The position numbers and the translations under genes were made by a program. From positions 1-36,563 of IMG/VR virus record IMGVR_UViG_3300029787_000153: a stretch of 36,563 bases of DNA. One strand, 5' to 3'. The stretch's first letter is position 1, and the number at the start of each line of letters is the position of its first letter. Below are positions 3,891 through 21,099 of this stretch, in pieces. The DNA is from a virus. The notes below the pieces were generated by a model. That model was given only the letters and a program-made list of their open reading frames with translations, ran no database searches and had not been told where the DNA came from.

Positions 3891-4778
3891 CTATGAATAC
3901 CAGGTGTAAGATCCAGGATCGGTGTAATAGACCGCCATATCGGTAACCGTCGCCGGTTCGCCCAGGTCCCGGTTATCAGAGACTGAGAGAATCCTTATTT
4001 TTGTTTCTTCCTTCATCTTCATTAATGCACTTGGATCAGATTCTTCCTTAACCATGCAGTCGATTGCAGCTCCGCAAATAATGTATTCATCCCATCCGCT
4101 GTAGAAATCAAAACGAGATTCGATGTTTCCGAAGGTCGTCGGATCCGCGAGGCCGCTGCTGTCCAGATCCGTTGTCACGGTGGCTGCACCTACAGCAGAA
4201 ACAGTCTGATCAACATCGTAATTGGTAGCATCGATGAAACCGGTGCCGGTGATCTTATCACCAACAACAAAACCATGGTTCTTCCCGACGGTCCACATGG
4301 TCGAGGTTCCCCGGGTGATCGCCGTTACGGTTTTTTCAATAAATTTTTTCGGGCTTGGAATATACCAGACCGTCAACGTGTCATTTGTCGAAGGGCTTGG
4401 TGTAAGTCGCAGGGAGGATCCCTGGATATGATATCGATACCGGTATGGAACCGAGTACCGGGAACCTACATCACGCTGGGGAAAGTTGTATCTTCTCAGC
4501 GGGAAAGTATCGGATCCCATGTTCAAATCAACGCCGCGAAGCTTATAAAAGTCAGCTGGCAGATCGTAGGTTTGGGTCCCGGAAACGAGCGTAACCGTTG
4601 AGGAATTTAGAAAATAGTCCTCGGAGTTCGCATTCGTGATGAGTAGGTCATAGAGCTCACAATACGATCGATTGATGTATTGGCGGAGCTCCTGGTCTGT
4701 AACGAATTGCGAGTTCTCCTGGTCAGCTCGCTGCCGTACCAGGGTCCTGAGATCTGAAAGAGAGACAAAGTCTGTCAT
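3891..4778 (-). CDS. Putative head-tail adaptor / tail tubular A-like structural protein
   Basis: 295-aa ORF downstream of the capsid gene. Its N-terminus (LSDLRTLVRQRADQ...FVTDQELRQYINRSYCELYDLL...TQTYDLPADFYKLRGVDL) resembles conserved adaptor-type proteins. The assignment rests mainly on position. Confidence 0.35.
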   Translation of the reverse strand: MTDFVSLSDLRTLVRQRADQENSQFVTDQELRQYINRSYCELYDLLITNANSEDYFLNSSTVTLVSGTQTYDLPADFYKLRGVDLNMGSDTFPLRRYNFPQRDVGSRYSVPYRYRYHIQGSSLRLTPSPSTNDTLTVWYIPSPKKFIEKTVTAITRGTSTMWTVGKNHGFVVGDKITGTGFIDATNYDVDQTVSAVGAATVTTDLDSSGLADPTTFGNIESRFDFYSGWDEYIICGAAIDCMVKEESDPSALMKMKEETKIRILSVSDNRDLGEPATVTDMAVYYTDPGSYTWYS

Positions 4779-16709: not shown

Positions 16710-17143
16710 CTTTGTCTTTCTCCAGGTAAGGATTCGCCTCCGGTATCCGGTGGCAGCTGCGCCTTGACGTCGATCCATTCCCAGGTGCCGTCAGGATGAT
16801 CATGTCGGATCTTGCCTTTGTTCCATCCGCCGCCGTTTCGTCCCAGGCGTTCAGCTCCGACCTTCTTGCCTTTATGCCATGGAATATTTCCAGGCTTGTA
16901 CCCAATCTTAGGATGGTCCTTGTTTCTTTTAACCAGCAGGCATCCGCATGACCTGGTTTTATGCTTGCCGGTGGAATTGTAAACAGCAGCATATCGGATC
17001 CTTTTTTCATTCCCGCATCGGCATCTGAATAAATACCAGGTGCATGAATACGGCTCGGTTTGGTGCTCTAACCAGCGGATCGGCGTCAACCAGCTGTCCG
17101 GTGCCTCAACTCCCAGCCTGACTTTGCTTTTCTCGTTCCTCAT
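16706..17143 (-). CDS. Zn-ribbon + NUMOD3-like DNA-binding protein (homing-endonuclease-associated motifs, no nuclease domain seen)
   Basis: The start is reassigned to ATG 17143 (GCAAGGAAACACTAAAGATG). It contains a CRCGNEKRI...GKHKTRSCGC zinc motif and two NUMOD3-like repeats, GNIPWHKGKK and GGWNKGK. Confidence 0.4.
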   Translation of the reverse strand: MRNEKSKVRLGVEAPDSWLTPIRWLEHQTEPYSCTWYLFRCRCGNEKRIRYAAVYNSTGKHKTRSCGCLLVKRNKDHPKIGYKPGNIPWHKGKKVGAERLGRNGGGWNKGKIRHDHPDGTWEWIDVKAQLPPDTGGESLPGERQR

Positions 17144-17150
17144 CTTTAGT

Positions 17151-17415
17151 GTTTCCTTGCTTTGTCGAGTCAGGCACCGCTTCGCATCGCCCTTCCCAGT
17201 CCCGCATGGCTCCGTCATGCCTCGGTTAAAATCCGTTTGTTTCCTTGCCTTGACAAGCATGGCCCCGCATAGCCTAGTCAGGCCGAAGCTTGCCTCGATT
17301 TAAAATTCGTTTAATCCTTGCCTTGTCAGGCGTTGCCTAGCCCCGAGTTGTCATGTCGCGCTCGACCTAGTCACGCATCGCCTTGGGTTAAAATCTTTTG
17401 TTTCCTTGCTTTGTC
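17151..17415. repeat. Diverged ~80-bp tandem repeats (4 units) with a conserved 16-mer core GTTTCCTTGCYTTGTC
   Basis: Cores start at 17151, 17239, 17312 (variant TAATCCTTGCCTTGTC) and 17400. Units 2-4 also share GGTTAAAATC/GATTTAAAATTC just upstream. The GC-rich inter-core segments share the words GTCAGGC, CGCATNGC and CCTAGYC. Confidence 0.85.
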
Positions 17416-17514
17416 TCGCACGGCCTCGTCAGGCATAGTCGCGCAGCGTCAAGCGTTGCGTCGCATGGCATTGTCAAGTCGTGCAGTGACCCGCTTCGCC
17501 AAGCCCATCCCGGC

Positions 17515-18000
17515 CTAGCCTGGACCCGGTAACTTCCTCCTTTCCCCTCGAAGCAGGACCCGGAGGCCTGCCACTCGGGCCATCGTATCTGCATGGTCTT
17601 GACGTTCCCGGACGTCGAGCTTCTCCATGGAGGTATTCACTAATCGGGAGACCGCCTTTCTCATGCTTTTTTGGAGTTTGGTATGCAGAGTTTTCTCAGC
17701 ATATTCTGCTTGCTTCTGCGGCTGCAGGATCCGGTATCCAATACCCCACTCTGAGATCAAACATATCTTTTCTTCCTGAAGGAGATATTCCTTTAACGCT
17801 TCCATGTTCGCCATGTATGCGAGCTGGATCGTGTCGAACTTATGTTTCGGCATATCATCGGGAGGCTGCTCCAATCCCAGGGCTTCAAAAAACCATGAGT
17901 GTTCGATGATATCGTCAGCACTAAATTCCTCCTCGAGGAACTTTTTCGCAGCTTCTCTCCATGCCGGGAAGAGCTGCATCATTTCATCTGTTTCATTCAT
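17515..18000 (-). CDS. Hypothetical early protein (161 aa)
   Basis: ORF with its SD inside a repeat core (GCAAGGAAACAATG). Repeat units flank it on both sides. No motif recognised. Confidence 0.6.
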   Translation of the reverse strand: MNETDEMMQLFPAWREAAKKFLEEEFSADDIIEHSWFFEALGLEQPPDDMPKHKFDTIQLAYMANMEALKEYLLQEEKICLISEWGIGYRILQPQKQAEYAEKTLHTKLQKSMRKAVSRLVNTSMEKLDVRERQDHADTMARVAGLRVLLRGERRKLPGPG

Positions 18001-18001
18001 T

Positions 18002-18103
18002 GTTTCCTTGCTTAGTCTTGTCTTGCAGTGTCAAGCAAAGCCCGGACGAGACCCGCCGAACCCGGCCATGGTTTTTCTTTGAAAATGTTTTCCTTGCTTT
18101 GTC
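18002..18103. repeat. Two further copies of the 16-mer core (same family as 17151..17415)
   Basis: GTTTCCTTGCTTAGTC at 18002..18017 and GTTTTCCTTGCTTTGTC at 18087..18103, 85 nt apart. Confidence 0.8.
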
Positions 18104-18192
18104 AAGTCTTGCCGTAGCCTGGTCCAGACGAGCTCTGCACGGCCCAGCTAGGCAGCGCGGCGAGAGGCCTTGCACTACCGTGCCATGGTCAC

Positions 18193-18759
18193 TCAGTTCA
18201 CTATTTCAAAACGTCCATACCTTGGACGGTAATCGCAGATTCCGACGAAATCCCCAGCGGTTTTGATGTAGCCCATAACGTCATTCATGTTGAGTAGCTC
18301 ATCACTGGCGAGGACCGTGAACGAGATCGCCCACTCATGGAAGATTGGGCGGCAGCGCATGATTCTTTTCTTCTGAAGAACGACCGATCTCATGTCTGAA
18401 AATTTATCACGCTGCTTCCACAATCCTGCGATATCCCGAGGACCGGAATATTCCAGTTTGATTTTCTGCTCAACGACCTGGAGACCTCGCTGAATGTTTC
18501 GGCCCATGCGGACGAACTTGGCACCGTCTCGGATCATCGCCTCGACGTTCTCACCAGGTATGACCGGACCTTCTTCATTCATGTAGAGCTGACCCTCCCA
18601 CTCGAGGCGGGCGATCTGCTCAAGATCTTCGTCGGTTTTCTTTCTTTTGCCGGTCAGTTCCTTGATCTGTTTTGACAAAGGATCGATCGGATTCGCGCAC
18701 CGTTCGCTCGACATGAGCAGCGGCGTTACCCCTTTTAATTTAATTTGTTCTTTAATCAT
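18193..18759 (-). CDS. Hypothetical early protein (188 aa), conserved-looking
   Basis: ORF downstream of ssb with well-formed globular sequence (...CRPIFHEWAISFTVLASDELLNMNDVMGYIKTAGDFVGICDYRPRYGRFEIVN). I cannot place the family. Confidence 0.65.
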   Translation of the reverse strand: MIKEQIKLKGVTPLLMSSERCANPIDPLSKQIKELTGKRKKTDEDLEQIARLEWEGQLYMNEEGPVIPGENVEAMIRDGAKFVRMGRNIQRGLQVVEQKIKLEYSGPRDIAGLWKQRDKFSDMRSVVLQKKRIMRCRPIFHEWAISFTVLASDELLNMNDVMGYIKTAGDFVGICDYRPRYGRFEIVN

Positions 18760-21069: not shown

Positions 21070-21099
21070 TTGACAATCACGAACATATGCGAATATAAT
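21070..21099 (+). promoter_or_regulatory. Consensus sigma70-type promoter reading toward int
   Basis: TTGACA at 21070..21075, an 18-nt spacer, and TATAAT at 21094..21099. Both hexamers are perfect. Confidence 0.5.

Follow-up and report, generated by a model that had tools for sequence, protein, structure and literature searches.

What does a temperate phage keep in roughly 560 bp of non-coding, repeat-filled DNA? The question is raised by the IMG/VR record IMGVR_UViG_3300029787_000153, of which we analysed positions 1 to 36,563 (the whole stretch, called the window below). On its minus strand, two intergenic blocks, IG2 (18001-18192) and IG1 (17144-17514), lie on either side of a gene for a 161-aa protein. 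An initial annotation, made from the letters alone, had described them as an array of diverged units of about 80 nt that share a conserved block and bracket this gene, and that description holds. Our data indicate that positions 17144-18759 (minus strand) are very probably a VIPR (Viral Interference Programmable Repeat) locus, in which the array encodes six guide RNAs (vrRNAs) and the 161-aa gene is accompanied by the gene for a 188-aa RAMP protein, Vipr. The locus is a divergent addition to the VIPR family and not a new kind of element. If this reading is true, a function can be assigned to the non-coding DNA and to two genes so far annotated as hypothetical (PHROGs 4652 and 5926).

The repeat array is real. 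Allowing up to two mismatches, we found the 16-mer GTTTCCTTGCYTTGTC five times, at 17151 and 17400 (no mismatches) and at 17239, 18002 and 18088 (one mismatch each). Dinucleotide-preserving shuffles (n = 100) gave an expectation of 0.06, and none of the 100 reached five. A sixth, weaker copy at 17312, TAATCCTTGCCTTGTC, has three mismatches and emerged from a repeat-family search as a member of family D1. The initial annotation had given core spacings of 88, 73 and 88 nt, which are correct, and of 85 nt for the last pair, which is 86 nt, as that copy begins at 18088. The longer block that it had noted in units 2-4 (its numbering) is repeat family D2, 61 nt long with 64-72% identity. It was also right that neither 17144-17514 nor 18001-18192 contains a credible open reading frame (ORF), as an ORF check confirmed, and that two of the cores serve as Shine-Dalgarno (SD) sequences of genes: GGAAACA-ATG for the 161-aa gene (ATG at 18000) and GGAAACACTAAAG-ATG for a 145-aa HNH-like gene (ATG at 17143). 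An exact scan of IMG/VR with the 16-mer returned 94 matches, approximately the level estimated for chance.

Both blocks are built of pentamers. Base identity between positions 5, 10, 15 and 20 nt apart was 0.42, 0.40, 0.40 and 0.38, compared to 0.26 expected and about 0.2-0.27 at other lags. Read in fives on the minus (gene) strand, the sequence consists of runs such as TGC-AC GAC-TT GAC-AA TGC-CA TGC-GA CGC-AA, ending in GAC-AA AGC-AA GGA-AA; position 1 is mostly G, position 2 is G or A, position 3 is C and positions 4 and 5 are any base. The difference between the 88- and 73-nt spacings is exactly three pentamers, and the words GTCAGGC, CGCATNGC and CCTAGYC recur because of the strict 5-nt periodicity across both blocks. 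A sliding period-5 score passed threshold solely at 17126-17575 and 17976-18225 in the whole 36.5-kb window. It reached 0.19 inside the locus, compared to a mean of -0.004 (sd 0.021, maximum 0.09) in the remainder of the window, and the threshold was passed by 5 of 32,884 windows in 94 unrelated viral loci.

Since both blocks are built of pentamers, the 16-mer (read as GACAARGCAAGGAAAC) simply spans the final two pentamers and the beginning of a conserved 3′ tail. On the gene strand, the A/U-rich block that follows the tracts is GGAAAC-AAAAGATTTTAAC. The consensus of the unit tails is GGAAM-NN-AAAGATTTWAAC, with the tail word AAAGATTTTAAC, and the tail or linker after the pentamer tract is 23 nt long. 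GC-rich tracts alternate with AT-rich blocks along the array. Because the final pentamers are RGCAA-GGAAA, every tail contains an SD-like AAGGA. We also considered a sponge for CsrA, as CAAGGA resembles a CsrA site, and rejected it, as few GGA motifs are present and the core is already explained by the pentamer code.

The tracts and tails resolve into six predicted vrRNA units, all on the minus strand. In IG2, U1 (18068-18184) consists of 14 pentamers (18184-18115), a 1-nt phase slip (18114), four further pentamers (18113-18094) and the tail GGAAAACATTTTCAAAGAAAAACC, with its core at 18088-18103. U2 (18001-18067) has 12 pentamers (18067-18008) and ends in the truncated tail GGAAACA, the SD of the 161-aa gene. 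IG1 begins with U3 (17383-17515), in which 22 in-phase pentamers (17515-17406) precede the tail GGAAACAAAAGATTTTAACCCAA and the core lies at 17400-17415. U4 (17295-17382) follows with 13 pentamers (17382-17318), the tail GGATTAAACGAATTTTAAATCGA and the weaker core copy at 17312. U5 (17222-17294) has 10 pentamers (17294-17245), the tail GGAAACAAACGGATTTTAACCGA and a core at 17239-17254, and U6 (17144-17221) has 13 pentamers (17221-17157) and the truncated tail that provides the SD of the 145-aa gene. Units are 67-133 nt long overall; internal units measure 73-88 nt.

To define the code, we made a register-anchored logo of 42 pentamers from the window and of 252 pentamers from 36 unique units of the close clade. 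Position 1 was G at a frequency of 0.64-0.69 and T at 0.16-0.24, while position 2 was G at 0.52-0.57 and A at 0.24-0.26; clade counts placed G at position 1 in about 57-69% of pentamers and A at position 2 in about 25-30%. Position 3 was C at 0.86-0.88, and C or T together at 0.96-0.97, while positions 4 and 5 (NN) carried 0.02-0.07 bits. Substitution followed the same pattern at position 3. Per-site differences between orthologous units, in pairs that are not phylogenetically independent, were 0.16, 0.09, 0.025, 0.14 and 0.17 for positions 1 to 5. Position 3 thus evolves about six times more slowly than the NN positions.

What protein could read such a code? The initial annotation did not see the pentamer periodicity and did not connect the array with the product of the gene next to IG2, a 188-aa protein (18193-18759, minus strand; PHROG phrog_4652). 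A phmmer search of PDB with this protein matched one solved structure, 36pp_D, "SUSP1 Vipr protein" (E 8.4e-30, residues 5-186). In tblastn, it was 33.7% identical to phage phiSUSP1 at 97% coverage and 43.9% identical to Pseudomonas phage LESphi2. An AlphaFold2 model from an alignment of 59 homologs had a pLDDT of 96.4, and its top Foldseek matches, in a PDB library older than the Vipr structure entry, were Csm3/Cas7 backbone subunits of type III CRISPR complexes (E 3e-6, probability 1.0). By homology and modelling, the 188-aa protein is a Vipr homolog with a predicted Cas7/Csm3-like RAMP fold. No other Cas-like protein was found among the annotated neighboring genes.

The 161-aa gene (17515-18000, minus strand; PHROG phrog_5926) appears to encode the accessory protein. 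Its product matched the protein encoded immediately after vipr in phiSUSP1 (ALH47068.1; BLASTP 28% identity, E 9e-20) and its counterpart in LESphi2 (30% identity, E 4e-21). We take the SUSP1 gene to be vap1 because a two-gene operon is described for SUSP1, and on that basis call the 161-aa gene vap1-like. With this gene, the locus appears to be type II-like. In pairwise comparison, its Vipr is 34% identical to that of SUSP1 and 44% to that of LESphi2. No Pfam or NCBIfam model matched either protein, and both phrog_4652 and phrog_5926 carry the label "unknown function" in PHROGs v4. For these reasons, current annotation pipelines cannot recognize VIPR loci.

VIPR systems have been described in two preprints as CRISPR-like, RNA-guided DNA silencing systems whose components are the RAMP protein Vipr, an accessory gene (vap) and vrRNAs (bioRxiv 10.64898/2026.04.26.720920 and 10.64898/2026.04.26.720927). 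A vrRNA measures up to about 100 nt; its 9-16 tandem pentamers, each a conserved GGY plus a hypervariable NN, lead into a 3′ tail that does not vary. Vipr assembles on it as a helical filament with one protomer per repeat, the NN dinucleotides pair with double-stranded DNA (dsDNA), one target base is skipped per repeat, and binding of the filament silences transcription of competing phages (10.64898/2026.04.26.720920, 10.64898/2026.04.26.720927). The systems are predominantly phage-encoded, with a minimal two-gene locus and with arrays in long intergenic regions that flank vipr on the same strand; Vipr is a minimal RAMP with an RRM core, a G-loop and a thumb, and VIPR is proposed to be ancestral to CRISPR (10.64898/2026.04.26.720920, 10.64898/2026.04.26.720927). 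We found no further literature on VIPR beyond these two preprints, and Rfam has no VIPR model.

The locus in the window resembles the type II systems of SUSP1 and of a Pseudomonas fulva prophage in its small Vipr RAMP protein, vap1-like gene, arrays on the vipr strand, phage location and lack of self-targets at 80% NN match or above, and in its units of about 70-130 nt, in which GGY/NN tracts precede a conserved 3′ tail. The motif reads as GGY on the strand that encodes vipr, and IG2 begins 8 nt past the vipr stop codon. Four of the six units (U2, U4, U5 and U6, with 12, 13, 10 and 13 pentamers) fall within the published range of 9-16 pentamers plus a conserved tail.

Before the PDB match to Vipr superseded them, several other readings of a 5-nt period were considered: a TRAP-like ring-binding RNA, origin iterons, Cox/Apl-type arrays and two-tier G-quadruplexes formed by GG every 5 nt. 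In the trp leader RNA, 11 (G/U)AG triplets spaced 2-3 nt apart wrap the TRAP protein ring. The likeness is a triplet every 5 nt in an RNA that is read by an oligomeric protein. However, we found no TRAP homolog in the window, the triplet is GGY and not (G/U)AG, and Vipr as published forms a DNA-guiding helical filament rather than an attenuation ring.

All Vipr homologs with flanking DNA (in contigs we number L098, L099, L103 and L105-L109; 43-99% identity) have an adjoining period-5 array. Those in L105-L109, which we found with the 188-aa protein at 43-51% identity, lie directly beside their arrays, arguing that the array is linked to vipr and not to replication genes. Two published phages served as controls. 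In SUSP1, the period-5 score flagged stretches upstream of vipr and downstream of vap1, as published for the vrRNAs, and in LESphi2 it flagged an array upstream of vipr. VIPR loci can thus be recognized from raw sequence by the period-5 statistic together with a Vipr homolog, while Pfam, NCBIfam and Rfam flag none of them.

This linkage bears on the possibility that the repeats are protein-binding sites at the DNA level, such as the iterons of an origin, or an operator or partition array bound by a replication or regulatory protein of the phage. Reiterated short motifs in non-coding DNA of the early region are a feature shared with phage and plasmid iterons and with Cox/Apl-type operator arrays. 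The blocks also belong to the recombination/replication module, with a DnaD-like loader gene about 1 kb downstream, and alternate between GC-rich and AT-rich sequence. However, such sites are spaced by one helical turn, while the period here is 5 nt and not about 10.5, and the motif is strand-asymmetric, on the gene strand. The arrays travel with vipr rather than with a replication or excision gene, lying beside a DNA ligase gene in SUSP1 and beside cI/cro and a sigma factor gene in LESphi2. In L107, an array of clean (GGCNN)18 lies right after a near-consensus sigma-70 promoter (TTGACA-N16-TATTAT) and before the vipr SD, and a second array, after the two genes, ends at an intrinsic terminator. 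This layout of promoter, array and terminator indicates that the arrays lie in transcribed sequence on the gene strand. We consider DNA-level binding sites highly improbable. The initial annotation had proposed the NUMOD3-like, initiator-like and XRE proteins of this phage as binders, and nothing we found supports them.

L107 also shows how its tracts are organized internally. Both (2810-2990 and 4020-4330) have a 20-nt, or four-pentamer, periodicity of their NN dinucleotides, which suggests either that the tracts grew through internal duplication or that their target repeats every 12 bp.

Could the repeats instead be reiterated promoters, leaders or SD decoys that tune neighboring genes? They contain TTGACA-like words, AAGGA is present in the cores, and two of the cores are ribosome-binding sites. 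However, a promoter scan detected no sigma-70 promoter in the arrays, the TTGACA-like word is GGCAA or AGCAA in relatives, and four of the six cores have no start codon. Reiterated promoters, which the initial annotation had listed among its candidates, would also leave the pentamer code and the linkage to vipr unexplained, and there is very little chance that they account for the array, although single vrRNAs may yet have promoters of their own. Under the VIPR reading, the same scan has another consequence. As the arrays contain no sigma-70-like promoter or convincing terminator of their own, U1-U6 are most likely processed from an early-operon transcript.

The initial annotation had also listed a family of small RNAs, which is the right kind of element, and solitary repeat units that mimic host CRISPR repeats (RNA anti-CRISPRs). 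Its CRISPR hint was sensible, as repeated short non-coding units in a phage early region would fit such mimics. Nevertheless, no Rfam family matched the whole window at the gathering threshold or the locus even at E <= 1, the conserved block is A/U-rich and unstructured, and this block is fully accounted for as a vrRNA tail beside a Vipr gene. Mimicry of a host CRISPR repeat is therefore almost certainly not the explanation. The locus is also not a CRISPR repeat-spacer array, since we found no identical direct repeats separating unique spacers and no match to an Rfam CRISPR repeat family. Its likeness to Class 1 CRISPR-Cas, in which Cas7/Csm3 binds crRNA, lies in the modelled RAMP fold, the expected binding of one protomer per short RNA segment and the array of predicted guides capped by a conserved handle. 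In contrast to Class 1 systems, the period is 5 nt and not 6, specificity is non-contiguous (NN in each pentamer), and the system is carried by a phage.

We compared the locus with that of SUSP1. The third pentamer position is T in SUSP1 and almost always C here, and the GG of the published GGY-NN is relaxed here, giving [G/T][G/A]C-NN. SUSP1 has one vrRNA upstream of vipr and three downstream, while the window has two between vipr and vap1 and none upstream. The hairpin/pseudoknot tail of SUSP1 is replaced by an A/U-rich, unstructured tail with an SD-like AAGGA. According to the preprints, only the SUSP1 clade has this pseudoknot (10.64898/2026.04.26.720920, 10.64898/2026.04.26.720927), so that it does not define the family; it is apparently missing from the P. 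fulva complex as well, as it is here. Two further features of the window set it apart from SUSP1: the tails that end each block double as ribosome-binding sites, and one tract has 22 pentamers.

The cryo-EM study of SUSP1 Vipr names H17, K33, R138, D177, W178 and R179 as residues that contact RNA or DNA (10.64898/2026.04.26.720927). Aligned to SUSP1 and in its numbering, the window Vipr conserves K33 (backbone at the skipped base), R138 (thumb, G2), D177 (G1) and R179 (Y3), the last three being G-loop and thumb residues. The W178 position is Tyr and the H17 position is Ser, where SUSP1 has Trp and His. Across the 59 homologs, this position is His in at least 90%; it is Ser in the window and Ala in L098 (1594-2160). 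With Ser in place of His17 and a degenerate GG, pentamer recognition here may differ from that of SUSP1. Relaxation of position 1 goes together with apparent loss of His17, a correlation over a handful of loci and not a demonstration.

Several of our observations weigh against a VIPR locus of the published kind. His17, which reads G1, is Ser in the window Vipr. The GG is degenerate, with substitutions at position 1 no rarer than in the NN dinucleotide (0.16 vs 0.14 and 0.17). U3, with 22 pentamers, and U1, with 14 + 4 pentamers and a 1-nt slip, lie outside the published 9-16 contiguous repeats. The predicted folding of the units was no better than that of shuffled sequences (z +0.06 to -0.96), and we found no stable tail structure, hairpin, pseudoknot or complementary arms in them. 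Finally, we found no convincing natural target of the guides in IMG/VR, where four 18-base sub-patterns gave 0, 0, 0 and 1 matches and U2 gave 6. With no excess folding stability in any unit, we also saw no evidence of a structured tail or of ribozymes between units.

One explanation for these observations would be that the locus is a decaying, partly non-functional VIPR remnant, whose degenerate GG and irregular units U1 and U3 can no longer sustain guide activity. Only some 57-69% of pentamers have G at position 1, about 25-30% have A at position 2, His17 has been replaced by Ser, U1 has slipped, and U3 is over-long. However, position 3 remains C or T in 96-97% and evolves about six times more slowly than NN. 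Both vipr and vap1 are intact in all relatives, at 84-99% amino-acid identity, and the relatives keep their arrays or expand them to 7-9 downstream units. Functional VIPR systems also show frequent internal degeneracy and variant consensus sequences (YNNNG, NNNGG and NNNNG; 10.64898/2026.04.26.720920, 10.64898/2026.04.26.720927). We therefore regard decay as improbable.

A more radical alternative is that the code has shifted in this clade. With Ser or Ala at the His17 position and position 1 evolving as fast as NN, the pentamer could be a relaxed "N-R-C/NN", in which position 1 is free or contributes a third specificity base. In addition, since the unstructured, SD-bearing tail also acts as ribosome-binding site for vap1 and for the 145-aa gene, loading of Vipr on the last vrRNA of each block could throttle downstream translation. 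We consider this combination unlikely, although less so than decay. If true, the SD-coupled feedback would be built into the locus, a feature without description for SUSP1. This six-guide locus of an environmental temperate phage, with its relaxed GG, replacement of His17 by Ser, C-only third position, unstructured tail with an SD and guides interleaved between vipr and vap1, could help to show which code contacts are essential.

A neighboring clade departs further from the SUSP1 code. L106 (5570-6330) and L105 (3556-4260) encode Vipr homologs that are about 50% identical to the window protein, followed by GGA-NN or TGA-NN pentamers. GGA-NN thus appears to be the code of this clade, although SUSP1 Vipr is reported to exclude purines sterically from the third position. 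L106 Vipr has Gln at the His17 position, the entire L106 array lies between vipr and the vap1-like gene, and the tails in the L106 and L105 arrays are GGTTAATTTTATTAAAC and GGTTTAACTTATTAAAT.

If the window locus operates as a VIPR system, its mechanism can be outlined by analogy with SUSP1 and P. fulva. The vrRNAs would be transcribed, processed and assembled with Vipr into a ribonucleoprotein, in which one protomer would bind each pentamer to build a helical filament along the vrRNA. The filament would bury the GGY bases, expose each NN dinucleotide and pair with dsDNA by reading NNxNNx, such that one base, usually at a codon wobble position, is skipped. Pairing with DNA would block transcription of a competing phage or prophage, and Vap1 would boost this silencing.

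We searched for targets by converting each GGY to one wildcard and scanning both strands, requiring a match to at least 80% of the NN bases. No self-target reached this threshold in the window, where the maximum was about 70%; published VIPR systems likewise lack self-targets (10.64898/2026.04.26.720920, 10.64898/2026.04.26.720927). No cross-targets were detected among related loci in 132 kb. We then scanned IMG/VR for exact matches to nine consecutive NN dinucleotides, using the 3′-proximal nine for U3-U6 and the 5′-most variable nine for U2; these sub-patterns specify 18 bases for four guides and about 17.5 for U2. There were no matches to U4, U5 or U6. A metagenome scan with U1 gave 18 matches, which were at chance level on extension.

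U3 had one match, at L118 6680-6705, which extends to 20 of 20 bases over ten 3′-proximal NN and is in frame. The site lies in a 454-aa, Ala/Lys/Glu-rich, scaffold-like ORF beside a portal-like gene. Judged by eye, the L118 phage seems to be much more GC-rich than the window phage, and the match may be due to chance.

For U2, all six matches were in frame, with the skipped base at the codon wobble position (L112 7721-7746, L113 6473-6498, L115 2937-2962, L116 9739-9764, L117 4628-4653 and L114 1953-1978). Five fall in homologous large-terminase (TerL) genes at the peptide YQLF[VL]NKRDPDR (site YQLFVNKRDPDR), and the other is in a small-terminase-like gene at QIFFLKNRDPERW. The NN bases of U2 are nearly identical in the window and in its relatives L001 and L002, making them the best conserved of any guide, while its GGY positions vary. 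However, the five TerL matches represent a single gene family, no other guide converges on the same contigs, and of the six bases in the three NN nearest the tail, only 3 match. These results suggest that the terminase genes are a weak candidate target, and the matches are not statistically secure. As for whether position 1 pairs with the skipped base, we counted by hand 3 matches out of 8 and 4 out of 9 in these candidates, which is uninformative.

How stable is the guide set? The 161-aa gene is present in three IMG/VR contigs and several assemblies at 84-99% identity, and arrays are kept in all of them. The number of downstream units is four in the window and in L001, at least four in L002, seven in L103 and nine in L098, where the non-coding DNA is about 1 kb, and relatives carry up to 11 guides, compared to six in the window. 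U1, including its 1-nt slip, is kept in L001 and L002. In contrast, U6 has no counterpart in L002 or in L001, although the DNA of L001 is about 91.5% identical across most aligned segments. On this comparison, the absence of U6 is guide turnover between related phages. The initial annotation had called the region an old tandem duplication, a description that is incomplete, as units turn over between relatives and the variable dinucleotides carry information.

The 3′ end of the array, where U6 lies, is a mosaic junction (window 17144-17232 vs L001 4770-5106), and U6 is found only in the window. In L001, other terminal units take its place, followed by some 340 bp of additional DNA that includes a small ORF; from the HNH-like gene onward, the two sequences are homologous again.

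The remainder of the window is that of a temperate phage, with an integrase gene on the plus strand and genes for Erf, SSB, TerS and TerL. The minus-strand order is a resolvase-like gene, erf, ssb, vipr, IG2, the vap1-like gene, IG1 and the HNH-like 145-aa gene, followed by a 149-aa gene, the DnaD-like loader gene, terS and terL. We found no DNA-level similarity to cultured phages, and the nearest TerL matches were only about 25% identical. Two scans for the host were also negative. A scan of genome contigs with the Vipr protein as query found no relative, and a DNA pattern of tail plus core gave 25 matches, none with a Vipr homolog, which we treated as chance; only one of these (L120) showed any period-5 signal, in a single marginal window (0.11). 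The integrase gene is preceded by a perfect promoter, TTGACA-N18-TATAAT (window 21070-21099, plus strand). A weaker, divergent promoter-like site (21121-21092, minus strand) points toward the early operon on the minus strand, of which the VIPR locus is a part. From these motifs, the host probably uses sigma-70-type promoters.

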